64,000 nt of DNA, from assembly GCA_965601925.1 (NCBI GenBank), contig OZ271854.1, positions 2,304,001-2,368,000 on the forward strand. The letters run 5' to 3'. Shown here piece after piece: positions 27,179-57,766 of the stretch. The translations under genes were made by a program, and so were the position numbers. Source of the DNA: Alkalispirochaeta sp. GTDB lineage: Bacteria; Spirochaetota; Spirochaetia; DSM-27196; Alkalispirochaetaceae. Numbering within the stretch: the stretch's first letter is position 1; each line of letters starts with the position of its first letter. The notes beneath the pieces are model-generated. The model was not told the DNA's origin. It ran no database searches and saw only the letters and a program-made list of their open reading frames with translations.

Positions 27179-28645
27179 CTACAATAGGAGGTGCGCCTCC
27201 AGCCCCGCGGCGCGATGTAACAGTTGCTCGTCCGATCCGTATCTCGAGGCGATCTGTATACCGAGCGGTAGCCCCGCGGGACCGCGTCCGTTGGGTAAAC
27301 CGGCTATCGGAACGCTGACCGTAGGAACGCCCGCATAGGTCCACGGTAGATTCATCGTGGGGTCGCCGGTCGTCTCTATTCCGCGAGGCGCCTCGCCGAC
27401 GGTCGCAGGCGCGATCCAGACGGCGGCTCCGTGTCGTTCCAATGCGCGCTCGATGCGCTCCCGTACGCGTATCCTTCCCACCCGCGCTTGCTCGCGTCGC
27501 TCGTCCGTGACGGCGGCTCCCCGTTCGATGAGTTGTGCACTCCGGGAATGATACAGCTCGCCGTGTTCCTCGTACCACCGCGTGTGGACGTCGGCGAAGT
27601 CTCGAGCAATCATGTCTTTGTGCGCCTCGTTGATGCTCTCAATATCCGAGAAGATCGATACTCGCTGTACCTCGACGCCGAGACCGACGAGTCGTTCGAT
27701 CACCGCGTCCAAGCCCCGGAGACCCGTCGTATCGGCTTGCGCAAGATAGGCGTCGTCGGGGACGAGGACGGTGCCGAGAAGGTGGCGTAGATCGGAGCCC
27801 GCTCGGGACGTATGCCGGGATTCTCCGTTCGTCGGAGGCGCCGCTTCATGTGCGCGGTCTCGCGACCATCCGGTAACCGTCACCGAGGCCGACCGAGCGA
27901 GGGCGTCTACGTCGGCGGCGATGATACCGACGTGATCGGCATCAACCGAGAACGGTATCACCCCGTCGGCGGCGATCCGTCCGTAGCTCGGCTTGTATCC
28001 CGCGACGCCGCAAAAGGAGGCCGGGCGCGATATGGAGCCGATCGTCTGCGTACCGAGAGCAATGTGGCAGAACCCCGCCGCGACCGCCGCGGCCGAGCCG
28101 CTCGAGGACCCTCCGGGAGTGTGGTCCGGGTTCCAGGGGTTCCGTGTCGGACCGGGGCCGAAATAGGCGAACTCCGTGGTGACGGTCTTGCCGAGGATCA
28201 AGGCGCCCGCTTCCCGAAGGGCGCTCACGACCGACGCCTCGTCTCGATTCTCGTCGGGTCGACCGGGGGCTCCCTCGCGCGTGAACACGTCCGGCGGGAG
28301 GGCGGAACCTCCGCGGGTGGGGAATCCTGCGGTGTGAAACAGATCTTTCACACCGAGTAAGGCACCGAACAGCGGCGGACGATCCGTCGGGTCGGGCCAA
28401 CGCTTCTCGAGGGACGCCGCCTCGCGAAGAATGCGTGCTCTCCGCCGGGACGCGGTCTCGTCGGGAAGGAGCGTTCCAAGTACCGGTTCATGACGATCGA
28501 GTCGATCGAGAAGCGGCGAAAGCTCCTCCGTGAGATTCGTCTCACGCGACTCGAGACGCTTGTGAAGCCCCTCGAGTGATTGTGGGGCGACTCTGTCCGA
28601 CGTCTCGGCGCGCTTCGTTGAAGGGCGCGAGCTCCTGCGATCCAT
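27179..28645 (-). CDS. Amidase-signature family enzyme (malonamidase E2-like motif)
   Basis: GVKD, GKTVTTEF, PGGSSSGS and ALGTQTIGSISRP; start overlaps the CoA-transferase stop (TAATG). Confidence 0.9.
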   Translation of the reverse strand: MDRRSSRPSTKRAETSDRVAPQSLEGLHKRLESRETNLTEELSPLLDRLDRHEPVLGTLLPDETASRRRARILREAASLEKRWPDPTDRPPLFGALLGVKDLFHTAGFPTRGGSALPPDVFTREGAPGRPDENRDEASVVSALREAGALILGKTVTTEFAYFGPGPTRNPWNPDHTPGGSSSGSAAAVAAGFCHIALGTQTIGSISRPASFCGVAGYKPSYGRIAADGVIPFSVDADHVGIIAADVDALARSASVTVTGWSRDRAHEAAPPTNGESRHTSRAGSDLRHLLGTVLVPDDAYLAQADTTGLRGLDAVIERLVGLGVEVQRVSIFSDIESINEAHKDMIARDFADVHTRWYEEHGELYHSRSAQLIERGAAVTDERREQARVGRIRVRERIERALERHGAAVWIAPATVGEAPRGIETTGDPTMNLPWTYAGVPTVSVPIAGLPNGRGPAGLPLGIQIASRYGSDEQLLHRAAGLEAHLLL

Positions 28646-29838
28646 TATACGGCTCCTCGTTCTCGGATCGTGTTAATCTGGTTCTCGTCGTAGCCGAGCT
28701 CGGCAAGGATCTCCGCGGTGTGCTCGCCGAGTTCCGGTACCGGGGGTCTCGTAGTATCGTCGTCCATGGAGCTCATTTTTATCGGATTTCCCGCAACCCG
28801 GACCGTTCCCGCCAGGCGATCTTCGACCGTGGCGATCATGTTGCGTGCATGGATTTGACGGTTCTGCATCACTTGCTCGATCTGGTTGATTCTGCTATGC
28901 GGGATACCGCGCTCGCTGAAGACTCCCGACCATTCACCGACGGTGCGCTGCGCAAGGAGGGACTCGACTACGGCGTTGAGCTCTTCCAGATTCTCGGTAC
29001 GTTTGGGGTTGGTCGCGAAGCGCGCGTCGGTGGCGAGATCGGTACGCTCGACAACCTCGCAAAAGGTCTGCCACAGCCCGTCGTTGCCGATTGCGATTAC
29101 GATCCAATCGTCTTTGGCTTTGTACGCTTGGAACGGACTTATGGTCGGATGGCGGTTGCCGAGGGGTTCCGGACTCGTCCCGTCGACCTGGTAGCGTGCG
29201 AGGGCGTTCTCGAGTATTGCCACCTGGCAGTCGAGCATTGCAACATCTATCTTCTGGCCGACGCCCGTCTCATGGCGTCGACTAACGGCGGCCAATATAC
29301 CGATGGCGGTAAAGAGCGCCGCCCCGATGTCTCCGATGGAGCACCCGACGCGCGTAGGCGGGGCCCCCGGCCAGCCGGTGACACTCATGAGGCCGCCGGC
29401 GGCCTGGGCGAGGATATCGTAGGCCGGTTTGCGGCTGTCCGGGCCGGTGTGACCGTACCCCGATGACGCTGCGTATATCAAACGGGGATTGATCTCGCGG
29501 AGCGCTTCGTATCCGAATCCGAGTTTTTCCATTACCCCGGGGCGGAAGTTTTCAACGAGAATGTCATGCTCTTCGACCAGCCGTCGAAATATCTCCTTGC
29601 CCGTCTCCGTCTTGAGGTTGAGCGTCATACTTCGCTTACCGCGGTTGATGCTGACGAAATAGAGGCTGCGTCCGTTCTTGAAGGGACCGAAGTGTCGGGA
29701 GTCGTCTCCTATCCCGGGCATCTCGATCTTGAGTACCTCGGCACCGAGGTCGGCCAGGAGCATGGTTGCGAAGGGACCTGCCAGGACGCGCGTCATATCC
29801 AACACCCGCAGGCCCGCAAGCGGTTTCTCTTTTGACAT
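28645..29838 (-). CDS. Family III CoA-transferase (CaiB/BaiF/Frc family)
   Basis: LAGPFATMLLADLGAEVLKIE, NRGKRS, ENFRPG and conserved Asp in SIGDIGA. Confidence 0.93.
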   Translation of the reverse strand: MSKEKPLAGLRVLDMTRVLAGPFATMLLADLGAEVLKIEMPGIGDDSRHFGPFKNGRSLYFVSINRGKRSMTLNLKTETGKEIFRRLVEEHDILVENFRPGVMEKLGFGYEALREINPRLIYAASSGYGHTGPDSRKPAYDILAQAAGGLMSVTGWPGAPPTRVGCSIGDIGAALFTAIGILAAVSRRHETGVGQKIDVAMLDCQVAILENALARYQVDGTSPEPLGNRHPTISPFQAYKAKDDWIVIAIGNDGLWQTFCEVVERTDLATDARFATNPKRTENLEELNAVVESLLAQRTVGEWSGVFSERGIPHSRINQIEQVMQNRQIHARNMIATVEDRLAGTVRVAGNPIKMSSMDDDTTRPPVPELGEHTAEILAELGYDENQINTIRERGAV

Positions 29839-30004
29839 GGTACATCTCCGTTGGTGGATGAAGCATAGTATATCATGGGAGGAGACTCCGCGTTAATAAC
29901 GAGTAAATCGACTCGACAGCGTTGAGAGTACGGCGTCGTTCCTCGGTATCATAGCGTACGAACCGCGTACCGGCGTCGCGACGATTTGGTGTTCGGGAGA
30001 GATT

Positions 30005-31117
30005 ATGAATAGACATGTCATACGAGCGCTGCGTACCGGCGATGCGCCCGAAGCGGCCCGAATTTTACTCAACGCATTTGCGGCGGACTTTCCTCTTGCG
30101 TGGCCGACCTTGGACTCCGCTCGCCGCGAGGTGGATGAAGCGTTGGATCGGGAACGGCTCGCCCTCGGGGCGTGGACTCGCGACGATACGCTCGTCGGAT
30201 GGATCGGAGCGATCCCGCAATATCGTAAACAAGAAGTGACAACGGGCTGGGAACTCCACCCGTTTTGCGTCGATCCGTCGAGCCACGGGCGAGGAGTCGG
30301 CCGGATGCTCGTGCGCTCGTTGGAGAAAGAGCTACACCGCCGCGGGGCTACGGTGGTATACCTTGGTACCGACGACGAGTCGGGTAGGACGATCGCCGCC
30401 GATAGAGAGCTTCCAGACATTCCGCAGGTAATAACGGAGCTCGAACGGCGAACCGATTCGGGATCACGAGTCGATCATCCCTATGCGTTCTACCGGCGGT
30501 GCGGCTATCGGATCGTCGGTGTGATTCCCGACGCAAGCGGTATCGGTCGTCCCGACATCCTCATGGCTCATCGTCTGGTTGAGCACCCCGCGGTTGCCCA
30601 CACAGATCGAGCGGCGCCTACCGAGGCGCCGGACTCACGGATCGATGGTATCGATCGGAGCGATGGTATCGATCGGATCGAAGCTATCGATCCGGCGGAG
30701 GCTCCGTTGGATCTTCTGATGGAAGCCGATCCGTCGGAGGAACGTATACGGTCGAATCTGAAGGATGCTCGCTGCTACGCCGTCCGTATCGCCGACTCGA
30801 TTGCGGCGATATGCGTCGTTGTGGACCTCTCCGGCGACCGCGCGGAGCTCGTCAACATCGCCGTACGTCCCACGCTGCGGGGTCGCGGTCTCGGTTCGCG
30901 TCTGCTCGATGCCGCGATCGATCGTACCCGCGAGCGTGGGATGGCTCACATGGAAGTGGGCACCGGCACGTTCGGCTACCAGCTTGCCTTCTACCAGCGC
31001 CGCGGATTTCGTGTGGCGTCGATCGTGCACGATTTTTTTCTCGATAATTATCATGAACCGGTCTTTGAGGCGGGGTTGCGCCACGTGGACATGATACGCT
31101 TGAGCCTGTCGTTGTGA
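30005..31117 (+). CDS. Tandem double-GNAT acetyltransferase; N-terminal domain AAC(6')-I-like
   Basis: Domain 1: WELHP, YLGTDDE, FYRRCGY, PDILMA. Domain 2: LMEADPS, RGRGLG, AFYQRRGF. Confidence 0.85.
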   Translation: MNRHVIRALRTGDAPEAARILLNAFAADFPLAWPTLDSARREVDEALDRERLALGAWTRDDTLVGWIGAIPQYRKQEVTTGWELHPFCVDPSSHGRGVGRMLVRSLEKELHRRGATVVYLGTDDESGRTIAADRELPDIPQVITELERRTDSGSRVDHPYAFYRRCGYRIVGVIPDASGIGRPDILMAHRLVEHPAVAHTDRAAPTEAPDSRIDGIDRSDGIDRIEAIDPAEAPLDLLMEADPSEERIRSNLKDARCYAVRIADSIAAICVVVDLSGDRAELVNIAVRPTLRGRGLGSRLLDAAIDRTRERGMAHMEVGTGTFGYQLAFYQRRGFRVASIVHDFFLDNYHEPVFEAGLRHVDMIRLSLSL

Positions 31118-31172: not shown

Positions 31173-32249
31173 ATGATCACACTCCGTCCCGACTCCCGAT
31201 ACGCCCTCGTCGTACCGACAAGTATGGGAGTGCGCATTACGCCCGTGGCGGGCCAGCCGGCGTACGCGTCCACAACCTTTGAGATGCACGCCACGAGCGC
31301 CGAAACGAATGCTGCCAGCGTCGTCTCGTATTTGGGATTGCCGGTTAAGATTCTGACCGCTTTCGTAAAAGATAGCCCGATTGCCCGGCTGATCAAGGAC
31401 AATCTCGCCTCACGCCACATCGAGTACGAGGGGCCGGAGCGCGATCAAGGCGGCCCGTGGGGTTACCGTCACCAGTTTAACATCGCCGACAGCGGTTTCG
31501 GCTCCCGGGGTCCACGCGTCCACAATGACCGTGCCGGTGAGGTCGGACGCACCCTCACCGTCGAAGATTTCGATTTACAGCGACTCTTCGACGACGACGG
31601 TGTGCAGATTCTCCACGTGTCGGGACTTTTTGCCGCGCTATCGGAACAGACGGGGCGGTTCTCCCTGGAGCTCGCCCGGGCGGCCAAGCGGTACGGGACA
31701 CGCATATCGTTCGATCTCAACTATCGCTCGTCGTTCTGGCGAAATCGGGAGAGAGAATTGCGCGAGATATTCCACGAGATCGCCGGGATTTCGGATGTTC
31801 TCGTCGGTAACGAGGAGGACTTTCAGCTGTGCCTAGGACTCCAGGGCCCTGAGGCGGGCGGGAAAGCGATAGCCGACAAAATCGACAGCTTTCAGTCCAT
31901 GATCGCCGAAGTACGGCGAAGCTATCCGCAGGTTGCGGCGTGCGCAACGACGCTCCGCGAGGTCATAAACACGAATCGTCATCTATGGGGTGCCGTGCTC
32001 TCCTACATGGACGATTGGCATGTCGTTGAGCCGCGTGAGATAGCTGTGCTCGATCGAATCGGCGGAGGCGACGGATTTGTCGGCGGTATGCTGTACGCCC
32101 TTTTGCGCGGTTGGGATCCGGAACGGTGGATTCAGTTCGGATGGGCCTCCGGTGCGCTCGCGGCGACGTTCCTCACCGACTACGGCCAGCCGGCCGACGA
32201 GGATCAAGTCTGGGCTATCTGGAAGGGCAACGCCCGCGTTCAGCGATAG
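31173..32249 (+). CDS. PfkB-family sugar kinase (KDG-kinase-like)
   Basis: SFDLNYR, GNEED and DRIGGGDGF. Confidence 0.88.
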   Translation: MITLRPDSRYALVVPTSMGVRITPVAGQPAYASTTFEMHATSAETNAASVVSYLGLPVKILTAFVKDSPIARLIKDNLASRHIEYEGPERDQGGPWGYRHQFNIADSGFGSRGPRVHNDRAGEVGRTLTVEDFDLQRLFDDDGVQILHVSGLFAALSEQTGRFSLELARAAKRYGTRISFDLNYRSSFWRNRERELREIFHEIAGISDVLVGNEEDFQLCLGLQGPEAGGKAIADKIDSFQSMIAEVRRSYPQVAACATTLREVINTNRHLWGAVLSYMDDWHVVEPREIAVLDRIGGGDGFVGGMLYALLRGWDPERWIQFGWASGALAATFLTDYGQPADEDQVWAIWKGNARVQR

Positions 32250-32399: not shown

Positions 32400-33296
32400 T
32401 CAGCGGGCGTTCTTCGCTCTTTTACGACCCTCTTCCACGAGCCAGTCGTTTTTGGCGCGCGCTACGTCGCCGAATCGGGTGAGCTCCGCCTTCGCTTTGA
32501 GCGCCATCTTCTCTTCGTAGGTCGCCTCGTCCACGAACGCGACGATTCTCGCGATCGAAGACTCACCGTCCACGAATCTCCATGGAAAACAGCCGATCGT
32601 GACGCGTTCGTTGAGCAACAGATCGATATCGCCTCCGAGGCACTCGGCGTGCACGATGCCGTGTGGAAACATCTCGATGTGCATGAGCTGGTACTTGTCG
32701 TCGGTGAAGACGTCGGTGAGCCCTTTGCCGTATTTCTTGCGAAAGTGTGCGTCGCATTCCCCCGCCTGTCGCGGCATCCAATCGCGGATTTTCGTATTCA
32801 TCGGGTGGTCGGCGCTCCCGCAGTCGACACCGATCCAGCGCAGTTTTTTCTCCTTCGCCCACTCGGCAAACGCGCGATCGGGACCGGGGTGCTTAACCAT
32901 GTAGGTTACCTCGTCGGCACTCGGCTGATCCCAGCCGTACCGATGGTAGCCGGTGGAGATGATGAGAATATCACCCTCCTTGACATCGACGCGTTCCTCC
33001 ACCATTTCCGGCGTATAGATATCGTATTCGCCCGCCGCATCGGATAGATCGACGATGACCCCCTCGTGAACCAGGAAGTCCATATCGAGATTCGCGATGT
33101 CCTTACCGGGCGTATAAAAGTGAATCTCGCCGTCGAGATGCGTTCCGACGTGGTTGGAGTGAGTTACGAGCTGACCGTTTGCACCGTTGGGAGCGAGACG
33201 CTTGAAGTATTTGACCTGTAACGGCTCGTAGGTCGGCCATGCGGGCGTGCCGATGCCGAGGGGAATGCTGAGATCAATGATCCTCATGTTGTTCAT
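32400..33296 (-). CDS. Cyclase-family metal-dependent amidohydrolase (kynurenine formamidase/isatin hydrolase fold)
   Basis: IIDLS, NHVGTHLD, GVDCGSAD and HAECL. Start at ATG 33296 after AAGGAG. Confidence 0.88.
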   Translation of the reverse strand: MNNMRIIDLSIPLGIGTPAWPTYEPLQVKYFKRLAPNGANGQLVTHSNHVGTHLDGEIHFYTPGKDIANLDMDFLVHEGVIVDLSDAAGEYDIYTPEMVEERVDVKEGDILIISTGYHRYGWDQPSADEVTYMVKHPGPDRAFAEWAKEKKLRWIGVDCGSADHPMNTKIRDWMPRQAGECDAHFRKKYGKGLTDVFTDDKYQLMHIEMFPHGIVHAECLGGDIDLLLNERVTIGCFPWRFVDGESSIARIVAFVDEATYEEKMALKAKAELTRFGDVARAKNDWLVEEGRKRAKNAR

Positions 33297-33434
33297 CCGA
33301 GTTCTCCTTGTAGCGAGTGTATCAACGTAAATATGCGCGTCATTGTATACCGAAACGGTCTGAACGTGCAGTTTCTCAGGTGCTAAGTTCGGTGCTGAAT
33401 CTCGCCGATATACGAGGGAAGACAGGAGGATACG

Positions 33435-33650
33435 ATGAAACAGTACAGTATTAAGGCGACTACCGGATGTTGTGCTACCCTCGATGTGCTCTGTGAAGTG
33501 CCCGATGGATACTTCGTGCGCGTCACCCACGCCTTCGACGGGTACGAGGAGGTCAAAGAGAGCGTTATGAGTCGAGAGCTTTTTGAGCTATGCCTCAGAA
33601 CGCATTTCATTCGTGAGCGCAATGAGGAGGTCGTCGAGCGGGTGGCGTAG
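33435..33650 (+). CDS. Small hypothetical protein (71 aa)
   Basis: Strong AGGAGG RBS; divergent from the cyclase gene. Confidence 0.65.
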   Translation: MKQYSIKATTGCCATLDVLCEVPDGYFVRVTHAFDGYEEVKESVMSRELFELCLRTHFIRERNEEVVERVA

Positions 33651-33783: not shown

Positions 33784-34017
33784 ATGAAAGAAATTGCCCG
33801 TCATACGGCAGGCCGGATTTATTTGGTGCTGCTCTTGCTGTCGGTCGTCGGGTTCATCGTCTTCTTGGCGATGGGCGGAACGGATGTCGCCGAGAATGGT
33901 GAGCCGATCGTGCTATTCGGTTGGATGACGATGCCGCTGGTCTCGGGAGTCGCCTTCGTTGCATTCTGGCTCATAACCTACATCGTCTACTACTTCTTCT
34001 TTTGGCCGTACCGATAG
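33784..34017 (+). CDS. Small 2-TM protein, likely accessory subunit of the Na+/solute symporter
   Basis: 77 aa with two hydrophobic helices, directly upstream of the SSS gene, an arrangement common for this transporter family. Confidence 0.7.
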   Translation: MKEIARHTAGRIYLVLLLLSVVGFIVFLAMGGTDVAENGEPIVLFGWMTMPLVSGVAFVAFWLITYIVYYFFFWPYR

Positions 34018-34025
34018 GAGGGCAC

Positions 34026-35570
34026 ATGGTATTTTCCATCTCGGCATTGAGCCTGTTCGGCATCGTGATCGTTCTTATGGCCGCATACGGCTATCGCATA
34101 TCGGCCAAGACCGCAGAGGACTATATGCTCGGCGGGCGAACGATCGGCGTCGTGGTGATGTTTTTCTTCGTTCTCTTTGCGATTTCTTCCGCATGGACGT
34201 TTTACGGGTTTCCCGGTCTCCTCTATACCCAAGGTCCCGGATACGTGATGTTCATTTGGGGCAGTGTCGCCGGTTTTGCCGGCCTCTACATGTTCTTGGG
34301 ACCACGTTTGTGGGCGTTGGCCAAGATCAATCGATTTCTCAGCCCGGTCGAGGTGCTTGCGGAGCGATACCGGTCGCCGATGCTACGCCTCATTTTGAGC
34401 TTAAGTATTCTCGCCTTTATCGTCCCCTATGTTGGAATCCAGCCCTTGGGAGTCGGCGCCGGATTTGAGGCGCTTACGGGGTTGCCCGCCTTTTGGGGAG
34501 CGTTGTATACGACGGTCATCCTCGTCGTCCTGGTTCTGCTGGGTGGGATGCGCATCGTCGCATGGGTCAACATTTTTCTCGGTGTCGTGTATATGACCGC
34601 CCTGTTGGGGAGTTTGTTGTGGGGCGTGCAAGTGCTCTTTCCCGACGGCGGGTTGACTCAGGCTGTGGCTACCTTGGCCGAGACGCGACCGGCGATGCTC
34701 TCAACCCCGGGACCGACGGGCGACTACACGCCCGTAGTGTTGGGAGGTACCTTCGTCGTCGGTATTCTCGCGTTCAGCTGGCCGCACGTGGCGATCGGTT
34801 GCATGACCGCGCGTGACAAGTCGCTCTTCAAGTGGTTTCCGATGCTGATTTTCATCTTCGGAGGGCTCTTTTTCTACATCATTCCCTTTATCTGGGGGTC
34901 GATCGTCGCTCCTGCCGCTTTACCGCTTCAGGAACTGGAGGCGCTTGCCGTCCAAAACGGCGTGGAACTCCAGACCGAGGCCGATAGAGTCGTACAGACG
35001 ATCATTTCACGGAGCTTACCCGAATGGTTCGGCGTCTTCGTTCTGCTCGGCGTCATTGCCGCTGCGGTAAGCACCGCGGCGGTGCAGCTCATGACCTCGA
35101 GCGTCATCGTAAGTCGTGACGTGATTCAAGGACTCTTTTTGCCCGATGCTCGAGACGAGCAAATCACCCGTTGGGCGCGTTTGGCGGTCGTTGCGATCGT
35201 TGTGCTCAGTCTGATCGTAAGCTTTCTCTACCGCGGCGCTATGGCGCTTTATCTGACCGACGTAAGTGTTCCGGGATTCGCGCAGTGGGCTCCCGCGCTG
35301 GTAGGCGGGCTCTTGTGGAAGCGCGGCACCAAACAGGGGGCGGTGGCCGGTACCCTTGCCGGCGTCATCTACCTCGTAGCGAGTCTTCTCGTCGTCGTCG
35401 GCGGAGAGCGGATTCTGGTAGTCGGCCACCCGGTGATCGCGAGCCTTTTGGTGAATACCCTCGTGTATATCATCGTGAGTTTCGCGACACCTCGTCCGGA
35501 CGAGGAGATCGAGACCGTATTCTTCGACGAGGTCGACGCGTATCTCGCCGCCGAGTCGGGATCGCGCTGA
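34026..35570 (+). CDS. Sodium:solute symporter (SSS) family transporter
   Basis: EDYMLGGR, SAWTFYGFPG, GGMR and AAAVSTA; about 13 TM; GGAGG RBS. Confidence 0.92.
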   Translation: MVFSISALSLFGIVIVLMAAYGYRISAKTAEDYMLGGRTIGVVVMFFFVLFAISSAWTFYGFPGLLYTQGPGYVMFIWGSVAGFAGLYMFLGPRLWALAKINRFLSPVEVLAERYRSPMLRLILSLSILAFIVPYVGIQPLGVGAGFEALTGLPAFWGALYTTVILVVLVLLGGMRIVAWVNIFLGVVYMTALLGSLLWGVQVLFPDGGLTQAVATLAETRPAMLSTPGPTGDYTPVVLGGTFVVGILAFSWPHVAIGCMTARDKSLFKWFPMLIFIFGGLFFYIIPFIWGSIVAPAALPLQELEALAVQNGVELQTEADRVVQTIISRSLPEWFGVFVLLGVIAAAVSTAAVQLMTSSVIVSRDVIQGLFLPDARDEQITRWARLAVVAIVVLSLIVSFLYRGAMALYLTDVSVPGFAQWAPALVGGLLWKRGTKQGAVAGTLAGVIYLVASLLVVVGGERILVVGHPVIASLLVNTLVYIIVSFATPRPDEEIETVFFDEVDAYLAAESGSR

Positions 35571-35584
35571 GACGGAGCGTCGGT

Positions 35585-37135
35585 ATGCCTTTCGGCAGGA
35601 AGAACAAGAAGGCCGGCGTAGCGGCCGAAAGGAGCACGGATCGCCCGTTAGCGAACCGGAATGAGAGGGCGTGGCGTCTCATCTATAATCCCGAGGGCGA
35701 TCCGGCCGATGTAGTCGCCTACGGCGCGGCGGTAGCGGAAGGGCGTATCGCGGGCAAGTATCAACTGAGCAATATCAAGGTTCCCAACACGGTGATCGTG
35801 CAGCGCAGCCGCGTCCCCGGCATCATCGTCGGAGCCGATGTACGCATCGATCGCGCGAACGCGTCACGAGAAGGTATCGAGATCGCGCGCACCCAACGTC
35901 AGGGACGAAACGCCGCCAAAACCGTCGGTACGGTGAGTCTGAGCGAGCTCATGGCGCATTCGTCACGAACTTTCGAGGCGGTCCCGATCGAACCCGACGA
36001 TCCGGCGGTGCTCATTTATACCTCCGGTACGACCGGCAACCCCAAAGGCGTGACACTGACTCACCGCAACTTCCATTTTCAGCTCAATACGATTGTTCGG
36101 TCTCTCGTTTCGTTTACTCAAGACGACCGTGTCATCGGAGTCCTGCCGATGTACCACGTCTTCGGATTGGCCAACTCGCTGGTAGCGGCGATCAATTTCG
36201 GAGCGTGTATCGTTCTCGTTCCCCAGTACAGTCCCGCGGCGCTCCTCGCGGCAATCGCCGATAACAACGCGACGATCATGCCGGCGGTCCCGACGATGTA
36301 CCAGCATCTATTGGCCGTCGCGCGGGCGAGAAAGATCGACATTCCTAAGAGTCTTCGTTTTTGCATATCCGGGGGCGCCGCCCTGCCGGTTACCGTGCTG
36401 CGCAGGTTCATGGACTCATTTGAGACGCAGCTCCTCGAAGGATACGGTCTGACCGAAACGACCTCAAGCGTCTGCGCCAACGGCCAGGGAGGCGTGTTTA
36501 AAGAGGGTAGTATCGGGCCGGCTGCAGACGGGGCCGAGATGAGAATCGTCGACGAGGACGGGAGCGAACTCCCCGACGGCGAGGTCGGTGAGATCGTCAT
36601 TCGTAGCACCACCGTTTTCGCCGGTTACTGGGGCAACCCTCAGGCCACGGACGAAGTGATGAGTGACGACGGATGGTTTCATACCGGCGATTTGGCGTAT
36701 CGCGATGAAGACGGTTTTTTCTTCATAACGGATCGAAAAAAGGACATCATCATTACGCGCGGCTATAACGTGAGCCCCCGAGAGGTCGAGGAGGTTCTCA
36801 TGAGCCATCCTATGATTGCCGACGCTGCGGTGGTCGGATTGCCCGGGCGCAAAGATGACGGCGAGTCTATCGTCGCCTTTGTCGTTACCCACGAGGGCGA
36901 GGTAATGGAAGAGAGCGATGTCGCCGCATTTTGTGACGCCGAGTTGGCACCCTACAAACGTCCGAGAACGATCAATATCGTCACCGCTCTCCCCAAGAGC
37001 GCGACCGGCAAGGTGTTGCGAACGCACCTTCGGGGGGAAGCGGATGATCGACGACTGGTGCAACGCGACGACGCCGAGCCTACCGAGCCCACGCAATCGC
37101 GCCGGGCGGCGGCACCCAATGCGGAGGAGGAGTAG
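35585..37135 (+). CDS. Chimera: lipoate-ligase-like N-terminal fragment + core and C-terminus of an acyl-CoA ligase (ANL family)
   Basis: YTSGTTGNPKG, EGYGLTET, WFHTGD, DRKKD and PKSATGK are intact. The first ~105 aa are not ANL-like (WRLI...PNTVIV...GIEIAR). Confidence 0.85.
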   Translation: MPFGRKNKKAGVAAERSTDRPLANRNERAWRLIYNPEGDPADVVAYGAAVAEGRIAGKYQLSNIKVPNTVIVQRSRVPGIIVGADVRIDRANASREGIEIARTQRQGRNAAKTVGTVSLSELMAHSSRTFEAVPIEPDDPAVLIYTSGTTGNPKGVTLTHRNFHFQLNTIVRSLVSFTQDDRVIGVLPMYHVFGLANSLVAAINFGACIVLVPQYSPAALLAAIADNNATIMPAVPTMYQHLLAVARARKIDIPKSLRFCISGGAALPVTVLRRFMDSFETQLLEGYGLTETTSSVCANGQGGVFKEGSIGPAADGAEMRIVDEDGSELPDGEVGEIVIRSTTVFAGYWGNPQATDEVMSDDGWFHTGDLAYRDEDGFFFITDRKKDIIITRGYNVSPREVEEVLMSHPMIADAAVVGLPGRKDDGESIVAFVVTHEGEVMEESDVAAFCDAELAPYKRPRTINIVTALPKSATGKVLRTHLRGEADDRRLVQRDDAEPTEPTQSRRAAAPNAEEE

Positions 37136-38735: not shown

Positions 38736-38834
38736 GTCTTCCCTCCGCCTAGTGGCCACGGTATACAGTGTATAGCACCGCAAAGCGGAACGTCACGCTT
38801 TTTGTGTACCGGCGATACGTGTCGCGTCCGTGTA

Positions 38835-41845: not shown

Positions 41846-41898
41846 CGTGAACCTCTCTTTCCGTGGTACGTAGACGCTATACCCGCCGGCGATTCGTG

Positions 41899-45916: not shown

Positions 45917-45923
45917 GGACGCT

Positions 45924-46690: not shown

Positions 46691-46694
46691 CCCC

Positions 46695-48175: not shown

Positions 48176-50560
48176 ATGAATGATGCACGCCGTCGACAGT
48201 CGAACCTCGGAGTGAGCGTCGAGCGTAAGGACGCGGCGGACAAGACAACCGGACGTACTCGATACACCGACGACTTCTCGATACCCGGGATGCTCTACGC
48301 CGCCATAGTCAATAGCCGCACCGCTCACGGTCTCGTTACCGCGATCGACGATGCGGAGGCGCGATCCATGCCGGGAGTGCGCGGCGTCTTTTCGGGAAAG
48401 GATTTTCCGGTGAGGGTCGGGCTCTACCTCGGCGACAAGCCGGCTCTTGCGGTGGATCGCGTACGGTACTTCGGCGAGCCGGTAGTGGCCGTGGTGGCCG
48501 ATGACGAGCGTACGGCCGCCGCCGCCGCCGCGACCGTTCGTGTGGAATACGAGGAGCTTCCGTTGGTCCGTAGCCCGCGGGAGGCCATCGCCGCCGACGC
48601 GCCCGTGATCCACCCCGCGATGCACGAGTACGTACACATCCCGGCGATTCTCCCCGAGCCCGGGACCAACATCGCCCACCATACGAGGATGCGCAAGGGC
48701 GATCCCGATACAGCCTTCGCCGAGGCGGACGTAACGATTCAAGGTCGTTACACATTTCCGCCGAAGGACCACGCCGCGATGGAACCGCGCGTCTCCGTCG
48801 CCGAAGTCAGAAGCGACGGACAGGTTGTGATTCGTACCTCGACGCAGAGTCCGTACGGCGTGCGTGGGATCATGAGTCGCGTCTTCGGCATTCCACCCGG
48901 GAAACTTACCATTCAGGTCGCCGAAATCGGCGGAGGGTTCGGCGGTAAAGCGGGGATTCAGCTGGAGCCCCTGGCGTATCTGCTCTCGCGAGAGCTCGGA
49001 GGGCGGCCGGTGCGCGTGGCAAACACCCGGGAGCAGGATATCGTCGGCTCCCCGGGGGGGCCGGGATTGGACGCCGTCGTCAAACTCGCTGCGCTGGCCG
49101 ACGGCACGATCACCGCGGCCGACATCGAGTTTCTCTTCGATTCGGGAGGGTACGCCGACTACGCCGTCAACGTGAGTCGCGCTGCGGGCTACGCCTCCAC
49201 GGGGCCGTACAACATTCCCAACCTGAAGACCGATAGCTATTGCGTGTATACCAATCACCCCTTCGCCACCGCCTACCGCGGTTTCGGACACATAGAGATG
49301 AGTTACGCGATCGAGCGATCGATGGAGCTTTTGGCGGACAAGCTGGGCATGGACGCGGTGGCGCTGCGACGCAAGAATGCGATTCAGCGGGGCGATCGGA
49401 CCCCGGCGCAGGACGCTCTCGACGCCAACACCGGCGATCTCAGGGAGTGCCTGGATCGTGTCGTCGGATATCTCGACTGGGACGCGGGGCAACGAGAAGA
49501 GATAAGCGAGCACCGGATACGCGCCAAAGGCATATCGTGCTACTGGAAAGCGCCGGCGATTCCGACGTTCACCGATGCCGGGGCGATTGTGAGCTTCAAT
49601 GAGGACGGATCGGTCAATATCGTGACCGGAGCCGTTGAGATGGGACAAGGTATCTATACCGGGTTGGCCCAGATTGTCGCGGAACGTCTTCGCATGCGCC
49701 CCGATGACGTGCACGTCGTACAGGAGGTCATGACCGACCGTGCGACCCACGACTGGACGAGCGCCGCGAGTCGCACGCTCTTCATGGTGGGACGCGCCGC
49801 GATCAACGCGGTAGACGATGCGGTCGCGCAGATCAAGCGCGTCGCCTCGGCGCCGTTGCGCTGTCCCGAAGAGGATCTCGACGTTGCGGACGGGCGTGTC
49901 TACCTTCGAGACGATCCCGAGCAAGGGCTTGCGCTCTCAGAGGTCGTGTTGGGATACGTCTATCCCAACGGGAACGCCGTCGGGGGTCCCGTCATCGGGC
50001 GCGGTAAGTACATTGCACGGCATCTGAGTCACATCGATCCCGAAACCGGCAAGGGTCGGCCGGGACTGGAGTGGACGCTCGGCGCTATGGGCGTCGAGGT
50101 GGAGGTCGATCTCAGAGACGGCAGTTTTCGCGTACTCAAGGGTGTCTGCTCGATGGATGTCGGCAGAGTCATAAATCCCGCGTTAGCGAGGGGGCAACTC
50201 GTCGGCGCCATGGCGATGGGGATCGGCTACACTACACGCGAGGCATTCGAGTTCGACTCCCACGGGCGTGTGCTCAACTACAAGCTGAGGGACTATAAGC
50301 TATTGCGCTACGGCGAACACCCCGAGTACATCGTCGATTTTGTCGAGACGCCCCAGGGAGACGGTCCCTTCGGCGCTCGAGGGCTCGGAGAGCAGGGCAT
50401 CATCGGCGTACCGGGCGCCCTCGCGGCGGCCTTCTCGCGGGCCGTCGGCGTACCGTTAAACCGCCTGCCGATCACTCCGGAGTATCTGTGGCGGAGCGCG
50501 AGAGAGGGAGGTCCCGTCTTGGGCGATGTGCATGCCGCCGTGGCGGAGGAGCGGGAATGA
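48176..50560 (+). CDS. Xanthine-dehydrogenase-family molybdenum hydroxylase, Mo-binding subunit
   Basis: GGGFGGK, AYRGFG, EMGQG and catalytic Glu motif RGLGEQG. Confidence 0.93.
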   Translation: MNDARRRQSNLGVSVERKDAADKTTGRTRYTDDFSIPGMLYAAIVNSRTAHGLVTAIDDAEARSMPGVRGVFSGKDFPVRVGLYLGDKPALAVDRVRYFGEPVVAVVADDERTAAAAAATVRVEYEELPLVRSPREAIAADAPVIHPAMHEYVHIPAILPEPGTNIAHHTRMRKGDPDTAFAEADVTIQGRYTFPPKDHAAMEPRVSVAEVRSDGQVVIRTSTQSPYGVRGIMSRVFGIPPGKLTIQVAEIGGGFGGKAGIQLEPLAYLLSRELGGRPVRVANTREQDIVGSPGGPGLDAVVKLAALADGTITAADIEFLFDSGGYADYAVNVSRAAGYASTGPYNIPNLKTDSYCVYTNHPFATAYRGFGHIEMSYAIERSMELLADKLGMDAVALRRKNAIQRGDRTPAQDALDANTGDLRECLDRVVGYLDWDAGQREEISEHRIRAKGISCYWKAPAIPTFTDAGAIVSFNEDGSVNIVTGAVEMGQGIYTGLAQIVAERLRMRPDDVHVVQEVMTDRATHDWTSAASRTLFMVGRAAINAVDDAVAQIKRVASAPLRCPEEDLDVADGRVYLRDDPEQGLALSEVVLGYVYPNGNAVGGPVIGRGKYIARHLSHIDPETGKGRPGLEWTLGAMGVEVEVDLRDGSFRVLKGVCSMDVGRVINPALARGQLVGAMAMGIGYTTREAFEFDSHGRVLNYKLRDYKLLRYGEHPEYIVDFVETPQGDGPFGARGLGEQGIIGVPGALAAAFSRAVGVPLNRLPITPEYLWRSAREGGPVLGDVHAAVAEERE

Positions 50561-51564
50561 TTCCGTTTGAGTTCGATTTCGTTCGCGCCGAGTCGGTGGA
50601 GGAAGCGGCCGCGGCGTGGCGTGACGCCGAACGAGCCGGTAAATCGGCCGCCTACTTCGGCGGCGGCACCGAGTTGGTAACCTTGGCTCGCGACGCCAAG
50701 CGTCGATTTGACGTGGCGGTCGATTACAAAGCCGTTCACGAGGCGCGCCGAGCGGCGCGTGAGTCCGATTCGTACGTGCTGGGTTCAGCGCTCCGGTTGA
50801 GCGACCTCACCGACCGAGCCGGCGCGGGACTGGTCGGGTACTGCTGTAGAGGCGTTGCGGATCGCACGGCGCGTAACTCGATCACGCTCGGCGGCAATAT
50901 CTGCGGGCAGCTCGCCTACCGCGAGGCGGTGCTTCCCTTTCTCCTGCTCGACGGGAGCGTGGAGGTCGCCTCGACCGACGGCCGGCGTTGGGAGTATCTC
51001 CGTGACCTCTTTGATAAACGGCTGCGTCTCGATGCCGGTGAACTTGCCGTGGCGTGGGCGATCCCTGCCGATACACTCGCCGGACTCGGCCTTCTCGACG
51101 TCGGTGATCCGAGTGGCGGAGGGGGGAATGTGCAGACCGAGCGTGCCGATCTCGGCTACGGTGCCGTCGCCGCGGTCGGATCGGGAGGGCGAGGAGCGTG
51201 GTACTATTGCCGGCGAACCCGCGAATCCCGGCTCGATTATCCCCTCGCCACCGTTGCCGTGGCGTCGATCGACGGCGTCGTGCGCGTAGCCGTGGCCGGT
51301 GCGTGGGGATACCCAGCGCGGGCTCTCCGCGTCGAGGAGGTACTCAACGCTGAGTCGGTTGTAGCGGATGCGTTGGCGGCGGCCGGTTCCGGCTCGTCCG
51401 TCGAAATCGACGGCCCGTCGCTTCGTCGCGTCGTCGGTCGCGCTCTCGACGCCGAGGAACGACCGTTCAAACAAGATCAACGCGGCAGCCGCGAGTATCG
51501 TCGCGAGATGACCATTCGAGCCGTCACCGACGGAATCGTCGCTCTGTCCGGAGGGAGCCTATGA
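50557..51564 (+). CDS. Mo hydroxylase FAD-binding subunit
   Basis: YFGGGTEL, RNSITLGGN and GSREYR; ATGA overlap. Confidence 0.88.
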   Translation: MIPFEFDFVRAESVEEAAAAWRDAERAGKSAAYFGGGTELVTLARDAKRRFDVAVDYKAVHEARRAARESDSYVLGSALRLSDLTDRAGAGLVGYCCRGVADRTARNSITLGGNICGQLAYREAVLPFLLLDGSVEVASTDGRRWEYLRDLFDKRLRLDAGELAVAWAIPADTLAGLGLLDVGDPSGGGGNVQTERADLGYGAVAAVGSGGRGAWYYCRRTRESRLDYPLATVAVASIDGVVRVAVAGAWGYPARALRVEEVLNAESVVADALAAAGSGSSVEIDGPSLRRVVGRALDAEERPFKQDQRGSREYRREMTIRAVTDGIVALSGGSL

Positions 51565-52046
51565 AGGAGTATGCGGGAAAGGTGAAGCTCTCGCTCCGCG
51601 TTAACGGCGAGGTGCGGACCGTATGGGTCTCTCCCGCCGATACGCTCTTGTGGACGCTTCGCAACCCCTTGGGGCTGACGGGGACGAAGCTGGGGTGCGA
51701 GAACGGCGACTGCGGAGCGTGTACCGTCCACGTCGATGGAGTACCCGTCAAGTCGTGCTATACGCTCGTCGTCGACGTCGACGAACGGGAGATCACTACG
51801 ATCGAAGGACTGCGCGACAGCCCCGTGCAGGAGGGTTTTCGCGTCGAGTACGGCTTTCAGTGCGGATATTGCACCTCGGGATTCATCATGAACGGCCATG
51901 CACTGCTCGATGCGCACCCCGACGCGGACGCCCCAACGCGCGTAGAATGGTTGCAATCGAACATCTGTCGCTGCACGGGTTACGAGGGTATCGAACGTGC
52001 CCTCGATCACGCCGGACGAGCGATTGCCGAGAACGACGGTGAATAG
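51561..52046 (+). CDS. Mo hydroxylase 2x[2Fe-2S] subunit
   Basis: GCENGDCGACTV, QCGYCTSG and NICRCTGY. Confidence 0.95.
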   Translation: MKEYAGKVKLSLRVNGEVRTVWVSPADTLLWTLRNPLGLTGTKLGCENGDCGACTVHVDGVPVKSCYTLVVDVDEREITTIEGLRDSPVQEGFRVEYGFQCGYCTSGFIMNGHALLDAHPDADAPTRVEWLQSNICRCTGYEGIERALDHAGRAIAENDGE

Positions 52047-52136: not shown

Positions 52137-52739
52137 ATGGCGACGAGACGGATGACGAAAGCCGAACAGGCGACACAGACGCGCGCCCTGGTCATCGGCG
52201 CCGCGAGGGCGTTGTTTGCGGAGCGAGGATACGACGGTGTCGGCTTGGATGACATCGTCGCGGCACTTCCGGTGACGAAGGGGGCGATTTACCACCACTT
52301 CGGCGATAAACACGGCCTCTTTCGTGCGGTTGTGGAGGACGCCCAAAGGGAGCTGGTCGAGATCGTCTCTACGGCCGGCGAGGCGACGGTCGATCCGTGG
52401 GCCGCCCTGGAGGCGGCGTGCGACGCCTTCTTCGAGGCCTTGGCACACCCCGGGCTCATGCGCATCGTATGCGCCGAGGCCGGACTGTTTCTCGCATATC
52501 ACGAGTTAAGTGCCATCGACGACGCCTACGGTATGAAGGTCCTCCACCGCTTTCTCGATCCGGCCTTTGCCGGCGGGCTCATATCCGCCGACCTCGATTC
52601 CGAGGCGATCGCGAGGCTTCTGAGCGGCGCAATCTATTACGGCGCCGAATGGGCCGCCGGAGGAGACCGGCCGGCCGAGCGACTCGAGCGGGTACGCCAC
52701 GACTTCCGGCTCATGTTGCGGTCTCTCAGACAAACATAA
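52137..52739 (+). CDS. TetR/AcrR-family regulator
   Basis: ARALFAERGY...TKGAIYHHFGDK. Confidence 0.92.
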   Translation: MATRRMTKAEQATQTRALVIGAARALFAERGYDGVGLDDIVAALPVTKGAIYHHFGDKHGLFRAVVEDAQRELVEIVSTAGEATVDPWAALEAACDAFFEALAHPGLMRIVCAEAGLFLAYHELSAIDDAYGMKVLHRFLDPAFAGGLISADLDSEAIARLLSGAIYYGAEWAAGGDRPAERLERVRHDFRLMLRSLRQT

Positions 52740-56660: not shown

Positions 56661-56783
56661 AGCGCGATGGTATCAGAGCGACGCACCTTTGCCGATGCGG
56701 GCGGCGCGGCCTCGAGTGGAGCGATATGCGCGCCTCAAGCCGGCTCACGGTGCGATAGTATCGGAGCAACACGGCCTTGCCGA
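56626..56783. repeat. Imperfect 70-bp direct repeat (period 88)
   Basis: 56626-56695 and 56714-56783 share 57 of 70 positions by manual alignment. Confidence 0.85.
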
Positions 56784-56797
56784 CGGCGCGCGCACGG

Positions 56798-57766
56798 TCA
56801 GTACGCGACGATGTGCGTCCCGGCGTTGCCTTCCACCGCTTCCAGGAGATTCTCCTCGTTGGTGATGATGACTCGATTGCCCGGGTCGGCCTGCACGAAC
56901 TCGATCGCCGCCATCATTTTGGGGCCCATCGAGCCCGGCGGGAACTGCCCGTCCTGATAGTAGTGCCGTGCCTGGGCGAGGGTAATGCGGTCCAGCGGTT
57001 TTTCGTCGCTCTTGCCGAAGTTGATCGTAACCTTCGGGACGCCGGTAATGACGATGAGGGTACGCGCGTGAACGGCGATTGCCAGTTTCATACTGGCAAG
57101 ATCCTTGTCTATGACGCAGTCGACACCCTGTATTGTCCCGTTTTCGTCGTACGCAACGGGAATGCCGCCGCCGCCGCCGGTGATCAGCATGTAGTGTTCC
57201 TTGAGAAGGTTGCGGATCGCATCCTTTTCCACGATATCGATCGGATAGGGCGAGGCGACGAATCGACGCCATCCGCGCCCGGCATCCTCTTTCACCAACC
57301 ATCCCCGCTCCTCGATGAGCTTTTGCGCCTGCTCCTCAGTGTAGAAGGGACCGATCGGCTTGGTCGGGTTATCCATCGCAGGATCGCGGCGGTCGACGAT
57401 GATCTGCGCGGGAATCGTCACCACGTTGCGCCACATCCCCTGGGCGATCATCTCGTTTTGCAGACACTGCTCGATCATGTATCCCATCGAACCGCAGGTC
57501 ATCGAGTCGAGCACACCGAGGGGCACCTCGGGCACCTCATCTTTGGCAAGCTCGTTTTGAAGGAGGAGATTGCCCACCTGCGGGCCGTTACCGTGGGTAA
57601 CGATGAAGTTGTAGCTCCGCTTCATCAACTCGACGACGGGTCGCACCGTACGACGCACGTTCTCGAACTGCTCGGCGACGGTGCCGCGCTGGCCCTTTGC
57701 GATAATCGAATTGCCGCCCAGGGCGATGACGGCAAGGCTTGCGTTGTGTTCCGTTTGTCGATTCAT
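56798..57766 (-). CDS. arcC: Carbamate kinase
   Basis: ALGGNS, THGNGPQVG, NPTKPIGPFY, GGGGIPV, VIDKD and GSMGPK. Confidence 0.95.
   Translation of the reverse strand: MNRQTEHNASLAVIALGGNSIIAKGQRGTVAEQFENVRRTVRPVVELMKRSYNFIVTHGNGPQVGNLLLQNELAKDEVPEVPLGVLDSMTCGSMGYMIEQCLQNEMIAQGMWRNVVTIPAQIIVDRRDPAMDNPTKPIGPFYTEEQAQKLIEERGWLVKEDAGRGWRRFVASPYPIDIVEKDAIRNLLKEHYMLITGGGGGIPVAYDENGTIQGVDCVIDKDLASMKLAIAVHARTLIVITGVPKVTINFGKSDEKPLDRITLAQARHYYQDGQFPPGSMGPKMMAAIEFVQADPGNRVIITNEENLLEAVEGNAGTHIVAY

Follow-up and report, generated by a model that had tools for sequence, protein, structure and literature searches.

What is degraded by a spirochaetal gene cluster in which a uracil-type permease and a set of carbamoyltransferase-like proteins stand back to back with a sodium-pumping decarboxylase? 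The cluster lies in a stretch of 64,000 nucleotides of Alkalispirochaeta sp. (contig OZ271854.1, positions 2,304,001 to 2,368,000), referred to below as the window. The window has about 60% G+C and is part of a 5.05-Mb single-contig genome; the nearest named relatives of its genes are found in Alkalispirochaeta and other free-living Spirochaetota. It holds most of a conserved catabolic island which, with a probability of roughly 60%, degrades uracil and/or thymine oxidatively without oxygen, and which would conserve energy at two steps, as ATP and as a Na+ gradient. An earlier sequence-only reading of this DNA had proposed such a pathway, and all of the genes that it named were found in their places by calling open reading frames (ORFs) and searching these against Pfam and NCBIfam (Table 1).

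In the proposed pathway, a UraA-type permease would import uracil or thymine and a molybdenum (Mo) hydroxylase would oxidise C6 to give barbiturate or 5-methylbarbiturate. A cyclase-family metal hydrolase would open the ring, yielding ureido(methyl)malonate, an N-acylurea, which a trio of FdrA, DUF1116 and DUF2877 proteins would phosphorolyse, releasing (methyl)malonamate and carbamoyl phosphate. Carbamate kinase would convert the carbamoyl phosphate into ATP, NH3 and CO2. A malonamidase-like amidase would produce (methyl)malonate, a YfdE-like CoA-transferase would form the CoA ester, probably at the expense of acetyl- or propionyl-CoA, and a biotin-containing membrane decarboxylase would release acetyl- or propionyl-CoA with export of Na+, regenerating the donor. 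The pieces would fit a single chemical sequence without gaps, each reaction being assigned from gene families and gene neighbourhood.

Conservation of the gene cluster

Two sets of loci were compared. The first is based on AllG-family matches in 61 relatives from the same order, 34 of which are positive, and includes 20 fetched neighbourhoods. The second consists of the best 80 of 255 loci containing relatives of the cyclase-family protein, with one genome per GTDB species; many of these stretches end at contig ends. Genes were labelled by BLASTP using the window proteins. Labels starting with L denote loci and those starting with G denote relative genomes.

The grouping of these genes is far beyond chance, the same genes being adjacent in dozens of other genomes. 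Among the 80 cyclase-anchored loci, allG is found in 65, allF in 47, the large subunit of the Mo hydroxylase usual in these loci (the cluster-type hydroxylase) in 40, the NCS2 permease in 39 (27 at 60% identity or more), the CoA-transferase in 28, the amidase in 27, where it comes after the cyclase and CoA-transferase genes, mmdA in eight and arcC in six. The usual order is hydroxylase M-S-L, permease, (AllH), AllF, AllG, cyclase, CoA-transferase and amidase, with allH present in L090 and many others. In L046 the order is hydroxylase L-M-S, arcC, allF, allG, cyclase, CoA-transferase and amidase, and in L042 it is arcC, hydroxylase, allH, allF, allG, cyclase, amidase and CoA-transferase. These compact clusters are found in families other than that of the window, mostly with one hydroxylase per operon.

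The cyclase is the most conserved marker of the cluster. Orthologues with 71-91% identity occur in Spirochaetota, Chloroflexota, Eisenbacteria and Caldisericota, and the HxGTHxDxxxH metal motif is invariant in 19 aligned sequences that have a mean column identity of 77%. In a sample of 401 Spirochaetota genomes, an orthologue of at least 76% identity is present in four, including that of the window, with one additional partial copy; a paralogue at 52-54% is present in another 12.

In the genus of the window (L054, L057), the order is permease, allH, allF, allG, then a symporter and a synthetase on the opposite strand, followed by cyclase, CoA-transferase and amidase. The symporter/synthetase insert between allG and cyclase is found only in this genus (L041, L050, L052, L054, L057), and allG adjoins the cyclase without it in L053, L055, L058 and L033. 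The GNAT and PfkB genes are absent at this position from L054, L057, L058 and other loci with contiguous cyclase, CoA-transferase and amidase genes, and are probably an insertion outside the pathway. Because relatives lacking the inserts have the genes contiguous, the layout of the window is that of an ancestral operon broken by these two insertions, symporter/synthetase and GNAT-PfkB, and by rearrangement. The 228-residue ORF directly downstream of allG, at the position occupied elsewhere by the cyclase, is probably part of the splitting insertion. G004, G007 and G001 retain the gene order of the entire island, and G054 retains part of it. The first half of this order reads cyclase, allG, allF, allH, permease; mmdADCB, hydroxylase 2, and its second half HlyIII, arcC, ABC transporter; hydroxylase 1, deaminase-like protein, thioesterase, MocA.

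The sequence-only reading had counted against itself that the genes are in several operons with unrelated genes between them. This is true of the present genome, but as an objection it is removed by the compact operons of the relatives. Co-location elsewhere, by which the proposal was to be judged, is seen in both locus sets, and AllG, mmdA, CoA-transferase and the hydroxylases also co-occur in the 61 relatives. AllG is found in 34 of them and mmdA in 28; both are present in 26, mmdA alone in two (at 53-57% identity), AllG alone in eight and neither in 25. The CoA-transferase is found in 24 of the 61, all AllG-positive, and one or other of two Mo hydroxylases described below is present in 33 of the 34 AllG-positive relatives as opposed to none of the 27 AllG-negative ones. 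These counts are descriptive, since kin are not independent.

The decarboxylase genes are joined to the cluster in five different arrangements, which span two phyla. The permease is divergent from mmdA in the window's own genus, L053 and L055, and for the window itself the gene calls confirmed the earlier description of a permease heading the AllH-AllF-AllG unit, divergent from a Na+ decarboxylase that is followed by a Mo hydroxylase. In the complete genome G017, mmdA comes directly after the cyclase, and all genes from allH as far as that of the 2Fe-2S hydroxylase subunit share a strand. The third arrangement is hydroxylase, mmdA-C-B and allF (L094, L106, L119). In the fourth, the neighbours of mmdA are the amidase together with a second CoA-transferase and a small thioesterase (L122, G040), and in the fifth mmdADCB directly precedes the cyclase in two Anaerolineae (L121, L126).

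In G055, G040, G054 and L122, mmdA has as its direct neighbour another family III CoA-transferase, a paralogue with 42-51% identity to that of the window (L137:10952-13658, L138:6832-10146). This position may point to an additional transfer of CoA linked to the decarboxylase.

Substrate clues from the individual proteins

The unit at 44354-47804 is predicted to be a biotin-dependent, Na+-translocating malonyl-/methylmalonyl-CoA decarboxylase. The pump subunit passes the Na+-decarboxylase model TIGR01109 and the carrier has an EAMKM biotinylation motif. Among solved structures, the carboxyltransferase is most similar to propionyl-CoA carboxylase beta, methylmalonyl-CoA decarboxylase alpha and transcarboxylase 12S, all of them enzymes handling malonyl- or methylmalonyl-CoA. 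The choice between these two esters was sought at position 422 of Streptomyces coelicolor PccB, which we take to be a specificity site of carboxyltransferases, and was abandoned as uninformative: the residue is Ile here, and Ile or Leu in several relatives with differing substrates.

The mmdA gene encodes the only full-length acyl-CoA carboxyltransferase in the genome. Methylmalonyl-CoA mutase (PF01642) has no match in the 5.05 Mb, whereas in a control search eight of 14 genomes gave a match. Because the genome is without a mutase match, the decarboxylase cannot be part of a succinate-to-propionate fermentation. Three further Na+-decarboxylase beta subunits are encoded elsewhere. With no mutase, a sole carboxyltransferase, no AllD, no oxalyl-CoA decarboxylase (Oxc) above cut-off, and purine catabolism encoded elsewhere, the genome leaves no other task for the parts of the island.

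The permease gives 264.6 bits to E. coli UraA (3QE7) as opposed to 62-67 bits to entries for uric acid-xanthine permeases. It passes the NCS2 superfamily model, and scores 350 bits with the uracil permease model NF007995 and 211 with the xanthine model. By these scores it is UraA-like and not purine-like; purine specificity of the permease and hydroxylase was an outcome that the sequence-only reading had named as contrary to its proposal. Phe73, Glu241, His245, Gly289 and Glu290 of UraA presumably form the uracil site; Phe73, Glu241 and Glu290 are kept in the permease, and Gly289 is replaced by Ser.

The true start of the cyclase is probably Met79 of its ORF. A Foldseek search with the predicted structure found isatin hydrolase (5NNA, E 2.7e-08) first, followed by kynurenine formamidase (4CO9, E 1.2e-07). 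The modelled fold confirms membership in the cyclase family only and says nothing about the substrate.

The trio was described earlier as being of the E. coli FdrA/YlbE/YlbF type. The same three families are indeed present, contiguous between 38835 and 42759, but orthology to AllFGH over YahEFG was not borne out. The AllG-like protein is 48% identical to YahG and 46% to YlbE/AllG, the AllF-like protein 44% to YahF and 41% to FdrA, and the gene order H-F-G matches that of E. coli yahEFG. The E. coli-type context that supplies oxalurate (allECD, ureidoglycolate dehydrogenase) is missing, as judged by the lack of an AllD-family match in the genome and by the allantoin cluster, described below, which appears to be without a dehydrogenase.

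For arcC, the carbamate kinase gene, the predicted role is ATP formation from the carbamoyl phosphate that the AllFGH-like enzyme would set free. No other protein in the genome exceeds the TIGR00746 cut-off, and no other carbamate kinase is intact. Orthologues of arcC adjoin the cluster in L039, L042, L046, L136 and L138; more distant copies (44-46%) are present in L068, L073, L097, L107 and L116, and a copy at 67% in L111. A second arcC has left two short carbamate kinase fragments at a distance of 12 kb from an arginine-deiminase-like gene (genome 3500705-3501040, 3487525-3488724) that scores 454.8 bits, just under its cut-off. The arcC of the window may have taken over for the decayed second copy. 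The genes for the binding protein and the ABC protein are upstream of arcC and recur with it in G001, G007 and G054, and that for the binding protein with arcC in G004; there is no obvious rationale for an iron/cobalamin-type uptake system beside carbamate kinase.

A second, paralogous FdrA/DUF1116 system, which arcC may also serve, extends across the contig junction (L031:16224-17678, L032:163-7433; genome 5051224-5053413, then 1-7433). It consists of an AllG-like gene, two cyclase-family genes (one 90% identical to a G017 paralogue), a PnrA/Bmp-type ABC transporter and an FdrA-like gene. The pairing of DUF1116 and cyclase with a different transporter suggests a general module for cyclic ureides. 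A 308-residue ORF at genome positions 33-959 was considered as the cyclase beside this second AllG and rejected, as it shows no similarity and the real cyclase-family genes are in other frames.

The best solved relative of the amidase is malonamidase E2 of Bradyrhizobium japonicum (1OCK), with only 152.6 bits over about 390 residues, the next family giving 129 bits; no NCBIfam amidase model reaches its cut-off. Lys62, Ser131, Ser155 and Arg158 align with malonamidase E2 and are conserved, and we take the first three to be the Lys-cis-Ser-Ser triad, followed by the arginine. This arginine is common to many amidase-signature enzymes, so it is no proof of substrate identity. The CoA-transferase has as its best solved relative E. 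coli YfdE, an acetyl-CoA:oxalate transferase (339 bits), and is also close to succinate-hydroxymethylglutarate CoA-transferase; both are dicarboxylate transferases.

The sequence-only reading assigned the Mo hydroxylase of the window to the pathway. In its favour, this enzyme travels with the decarboxylase operon and is found in AllG-positive relatives only; the hydroxylase usual in the cluster, however, is a paralogue encoded outside the window. Between the hydroxylase of the compact operons and the large subunit of the window, identity is no more than 41-43%. For 38 of 40 such hydroxylases, the best match in the genome is an ORF at 2369935-2372433, about 2 kb past the 3' end of the window. 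The cluster-type enzyme has 4-hydroxybenzoyl-CoA reductase and CO dehydrogenase as its best solved relatives, and is followed by a cytosine-deaminase-like amidohydrolase in the window's genome, G001 and G004, the latter gene being in keeping with a pyrimidine substrate.

The operon 0.6-6.8 kb beyond the 3' end (L133:7630-13778; genome 2368630-2374778) encodes, in order, a FAD subunit, a 2Fe-2S subunit, a large subunit, a cytosine-deaminase-like Amidohydro_3 protein, a FlK-type hotdog thioesterase and a MocA-type cytidylyltransferase. The large subunit is 43-73% identical to the compact-cluster hydroxylases, and 66-73% for most spirochaete loci.

Of the 61 relatives, 29, all AllG-positive, have an orthologue of the window hydroxylase with at least 62% identity, and 30 have the cluster-type enzyme. 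The window-type gene is within 15 kb of mmdA on the same contig in 11 genomes; in eight of these the gap is 2.0-2.3 kb and is filled by three small mmd genes. It directly follows mmdB in G001, G017, G022, G040, G054, G056, G060 and L122. The ORF at 47898-48179, in the gap between mmdB and the hydroxylase of the window, is Arg-rich and of low complexity, matches no family, and was treated as non-coding. No characterised uracil dehydrogenase sequence turned up in the searches, and neither hydroxylase was likened to one. The simplest idea for the inheritance of both is that they possibly divide uracil and thymine between them.

Table 1. Genes of the island and their neighbours, with positions in the window
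Feature	Position	Strand	Evidence
Amidase-signature amidase, predicted malonamate/methylmalonamate amidohydrolase	27179-28645	-	PF01425 E 3.2e-63
Family III CoA-transferase, predicted acetyl-CoA:(methyl)malonate CoA-transferase	28645-29838	-	PF02515 E 1.1e-134
GNAT acetyltransferase	30005-31117	+	Pfam
PfkB kinase	31173-32249	+	Pfam
Cyclase-family metal hydrolase, predicted ring-opening (methyl)barbiturate amidohydrolase	32400-33296 (ORF 32400-33530)	-	PF04199 E 2.6e-31, 109.2 vs cut-off 23.1
Na+/solute symporter	33921-35570	+	Pfam, NCBIfam
Two-gene acyl-CoA synthetase	35171-37135 and 37142-38071	+	Pfam, NCBIfam
228-residue ORF	38097-38783	-	No Pfam/NCBIfam match
AllG/DUF1116 subunit of predicted ureido(methyl)malonate:phosphate carbamoyltransferase	38835-40268	-	PF06545 E 5.9e-101
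FdrA/AllF-family subunit	40280-41947	-	NF004760 519 bits, cut-off 433
AllH/DUF2877-family subunit	41899-42759	-	PF11392 E 7.3e-16
NCS2 permease, UraA/RutG type, predicted uracil/thymine uptake	42891-44114	-	Best model NF007995
Decarboxylase carboxyltransferase (mmdA)	44354-45916	+	Pfam; TIGR01117 743.1 bits, cut-off 998.8
Decarboxylase small subunit, OAD_gamma	45924-46226	+	PF04277
Decarboxylase biotin carrier	~46202-46690	+	PF00364, EAMKM motif
Decarboxylase Na+-pump beta subunit	46695-47804	+	TIGR01109 506.6 bits vs cut-off 190.6; PF03977 E 6.2e-159
Mo hydroxylase large subunit	48176-50560	+	Pfam; XdhA model 497.6 bits, cut-off 780
Mo hydroxylase FAD subunit	50488-51564	+	Pfam
Mo hydroxylase 2Fe-2S subunit	51561-52046	+	Pfam
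TetR-family regulator, candidate local regulator	52137-52739	+	PF00440, PF21351
Carbamate kinase arcC	56798-57766	-	TIGR00746 370.9 bits vs cut-off 358.25
Fused ABC permease/ATPase	57840-59795	-	Pfam
Peripla_BP_2 binding protein	59740-61065	-	Pfam

Between the pathway units there are also an SDR protein, a MATE exporter and an HlyIII-family protein, without obvious connection to them, and the remainder of the window contains chemotaxis, signalling and unassigned genes. The acyl-CoA synthetase is split in permuted order, the first ORF covering positions 151-384 of the AMP-binding profile together with the C-terminal domain, and the second ORF covering positions 5-126. Both are kept at 67-72% identity in five relatives, along with the upstream Na+/solute symporter.

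Points against the pyrimidine pathway and alternative substrates

Taken as one pathway, the proposal passed every computational test able to refute it, with corrections to the hydroxylase and to the orthology of the trio; substrate and chemistry continue to be read from the protein families. A number of observations nevertheless weigh against it. The decarboxylase gene mmdA was not found in eight of the 34 AllG-positive relatives. Both hydroxylases are co-inherited in 26 of the 61 relatives, whereas a simple pathway needs one. Several proteins are below the cut-offs of the specific models nearest to them: the permease for NF007995 (cut-off 477), the CoA-transferase for the CoA:oxalate transferase model NF008511 (379.7 bits, cut-off 522), and the carboxyltransferase and the window hydroxylase for TIGR01117 and XdhA, respectively (Table 1). 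The UraA residue His245 is Asp in the permease. The cyclase model has a mean pLDDT of 74.6 and is weak at residues 14-65, with values below 50 at residues 14-56, over the metal-binding motif. The trio has much the same identity to E. coli AllFGH (46/41/38%) as to YahEFG (48/44/27%). In a quick tree of DUF1116/AllG proteins, which has long branches and is tentative, the cyclase-linked AllG copies form their own clade, joining YahG with a support of 83, with YlbE distant. The arcC product may serve the arginine-deiminase-like gene as well, and an oxidative purine/allantoin cluster is situated 58-70 kb upstream (L139:7646-19569; genome 2233646-2245569).

A further point concerns the end of the pathway. 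Instead of the CoA-transferase and amidase, 23 of the 80 cyclase-anchored loci have a thiolase-like protein, a DUF35-like zinc-ribbon protein and a 233-residue protein without an assigned family. Because of this variant, the fate of the amide product would not be uniform. The CoA-transferase/amidase type is found in 30 of the 80 loci and the two types together in none; none of the eight cyclase loci bearing mmdA is of the thiolase type.

Loci of the thiolase type (L068:6813-14881, L087:6824-14802 and about 20 more) have AllF and AllG fused into a protein of about 1050 residues. Their order is cyclase, 233-residue protein, thiolase-like protein, DUF35-type zinc-ribbon protein, GntR regulator and AllH.

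Of the other explanations, the one that survives best keeps the logic of the pathway and its malonate-type end product but changes the pyrimidine-like ring, which could be barbiturate, a 5-substituted uracil, a deaminated cytosine derivative or a heterocycle needing two hydroxylations. The co-inheritance of two paralogous hydroxylases would be accounted for in this way, as would the cytosine-deaminase-like protein behind one of them, and the low model score of the permease together with its Asp at the position of His245 points in the same direction. So do the hydroxylases themselves, neither of which was likened to a uracil dehydrogenase, no characterised sequence of which turned up, the cluster-type one being nearest to 4-hydroxybenzoyl-CoA reductase and CO dehydrogenase. 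However, of the rings that would suit a UraA-type carrier and lead to malonate or methylmalonate, none comes near uracil and thymine in abundance, a single hydroxylase is the rule in compact operons, and three of the UraA site residues are kept. A different ring is considered unlikely.

Considerably less probable is an oxalurate route, in which the trio would be a true oxamate carbamoyltransferase fed by purine or allantoin breakdown, the amidase would convert oxamate into oxalate, and the YfdE-like enzyme would form oxalyl-CoA. The only characterised member of the family acts on oxalurate/oxamate (PMC11326118). The best named relatives of the CoA-transferase are CoA:oxalate transferases, and the upstream cluster encodes allantoinase, a factor-independent urate hydroxylase (uricase), OHCU decarboxylase, an allantoate amidohydrolase-family protein and (S)-ureidoglycine aminohydrolase. 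But the Ldh_2/AllD family, which makes oxalurate, has no match in the genome, and the allantoin cluster appears to be without a dehydrogenase. Nor is any oxalyl-CoA decarboxylase above cut-off in the genome, the best match having 178 bits compared with 739, and a biotin enzyme of the (methyl)malonyl-CoA type, although embedded in the cluster, cannot, by established chemistry, decarboxylate oxalyl-CoA. The oxalurate route would leave the UraA-like carrier without a role, as well as the hydroxylase and the cyclase, the most constant members of the cluster, and the amidase is nearest to malonamidase E2. No allantoin genes were seen beside the cluster in about 100 labelled loci, which is weak evidence, as labelling with window proteins would miss them. 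The earlier statement that the window itself contains neither an allantoin-pathway gene nor a methylmalonyl-CoA mutase proved correct.

The purine cluster also encodes a fused, 965-residue protein resembling xanthine dehydrogenase and an 8-oxoguanine deaminase. For a lineage known for anaerobes, the presence of a uricase, which depends on O2, is a surprise.

It is hardly credible, finally, that the units are independent, with the decarboxylase in some other fermentation, arcC in arginine breakdown and their nearness coincidental: the distribution of the genes over at least five transcription units and more than 40 kb, interspersed with unrelated genes, the arginine-deiminase-like gene and the three further beta subunits would agree with this, but five different juxtapositions of mmd and cluster genes in two phyla, the unbroken strand from allH through the hydroxylase in G017, the company of AllG in 26 of the 28 genomes with mmdA, the restriction of the hydroxylases to AllG-positive relatives (33 of 34, and 0 of 27 negative) and the lack of a mutase to supply methylmalonyl-CoA by the usual route all oppose it.

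Relation to known systems and implications

Four routes of pyrimidine degradation are listed in a 2025 preprint, namely the reductive, oxidative, Rut and URC routes (bioRxiv 10.1101/2025.05.19.654654). The pathway proposed here is like the aerobic oxidative route in leading from uracil through barbiturate to ureidomalonate and ending in malonate. It would differ in three respects. Ring opening is assigned to a PF04199 cyclase-family enzyme instead of an AtzD/TrzD-family barbiturase; the ureide would be cleaved by phosphate, yielding ATP, and not by water to urea; and malonate would go on to be decarboxylated with pumping of Na+. The AtzD/TrzD family (PF09663) has no match in the genome, which is weak evidence, since it also has none in the 14 control genomes. 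The aerobic pathway was reportedly worked out by Soong, Ogawa and Shimizu as consisting of uracil/thymine dehydrogenase, barbiturase and ureidomalonase. To our knowledge, only aerobes are known to use the oxidative route, and we know of no gene for two of its three enzymes. The island would represent an oxidative pyrimidine pathway with non-homologous, energy-conserving enzymes.

The closest precedent for the phosphate-dependent step is the oxamate carbamoyltransferase of E. coli, AllF-AllG-AllH, with the carbamate kinase AllK (PMC11326118; PMC9843812). According to the first of these sources, AllFGH interconverts oxalurate and oxamate plus carbamoyl phosphate, that is, it turns an acylurea into an amide and carbamoyl phosphate. 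The window has the same FdrA-like, DUF1116 and DUF2877 families and an associated carbamate kinase, and the proposed reaction, from N-acylurea and phosphate to amide and carbamoyl phosphate and on to ATP, is the same. The context is different, consisting of a Mo hydroxylase, a UraA-type permease and a cyclase-family hydrolase, whereas in E. coli it is allECD. The predicted substrate is ureido(methyl)malonate and not oxalurate; ureidomalonate is likewise an N-acylurea, and differs from oxalurate by one carbon.

The PF04199 fold and metal motif of the cyclase are shared with isatin hydrolase and kynurenine formamidase, the former of which opens a cyclic amide (lactam). Unlike these enzymes, to which it is 13-20% identical in the fold matches, the cyclase has about 295 residues with a conserved C-terminal extension.

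As for the second half of the pathway, it is well established that energy can be conserved by Na+-translocating decarboxylases (PMC8085960). By analogy, amide hydrolysis, CoA transfer and decarboxylation would copy the logic of the malonate and succinate fermentations described there. With the Na+-translocating methylmalonyl-CoA decarboxylase (EC 7.2.4.3) the unit shares a carboxyltransferase, a small subunit, a biotin carrier with AMKM and a pump. Unlike in such systems, there is no mutase, so the CoA ester cannot come from succinate, and the operon, unlike known mmd operons, continues into a Mo hydroxylase. In the malonate fermentation of Malonomonas rubra and Sporomusa malonica, the decarboxylation of a malonate-type acid also serves as the energy source (PMC8085960). 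Activation is by an acyl-carrier protein system in M. rubra, and would be by a family III CoA-transferase here.

No publication was found that ties AllFGH/FdrA/DUF1116, the cyclase-family enzyme or carbamate kinase to the catabolism of barbiturate, ureidomalonate or uracil, in a search that largely left aside subscription journals and supplements. The contribution of this window is the downstream half of the pathway, with the malonamidase-like amidase, the YfdE-like CoA-transferase and the Na+ decarboxylase, for which there is evidence from co-location and co-occurrence. It further contributes the second hydroxylase tied to the decarboxylase and a worked example of the scattering of an operon by insertions.

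More tentatively, free-living spirochaetes and other anaerobes might ferment pyrimidine bases for energy, with a yield of one ATP per ring by substrate-level phosphorylation through carbamoyl phosphate plus a sodium-motive force from decarboxylating the remaining malonyl- or methylmalonyl-CoA, using enzymes unrelated to those of the textbook barbiturase pathway. The cluster-type hydroxylase would then act on uracil and the decarboxylase-linked one on thymine, which would lead to methylmalonyl-CoA, the classical substrate of the decarboxylase.

The cluster is carried by cultured organisms, Alkalispirochaeta alkalica DSM 8900 (L058), Sphaerochaeta halotolerans (L065) and Gracilinema caldarium (L068), which allow a direct test of the idea. 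If it is correct, there would be an oxygen-independent, energy-yielding oxidative route of pyrimidine degradation built from different enzyme families, and the newly discovered AllFGH-type carbamoyltransferases would have a second class of substrates. A very highly conserved cyclase-family protein would acquire a physiological role, and there would be a reason for the presence of a methylmalonyl-CoA-type sodium pump in genomes without the mutase. Nucleobases would join the short list of substrates for decarboxylation-driven energy conservation, which would have a bearing on the recycling of nucleic-acid nutrients in sediments, mats and guts.

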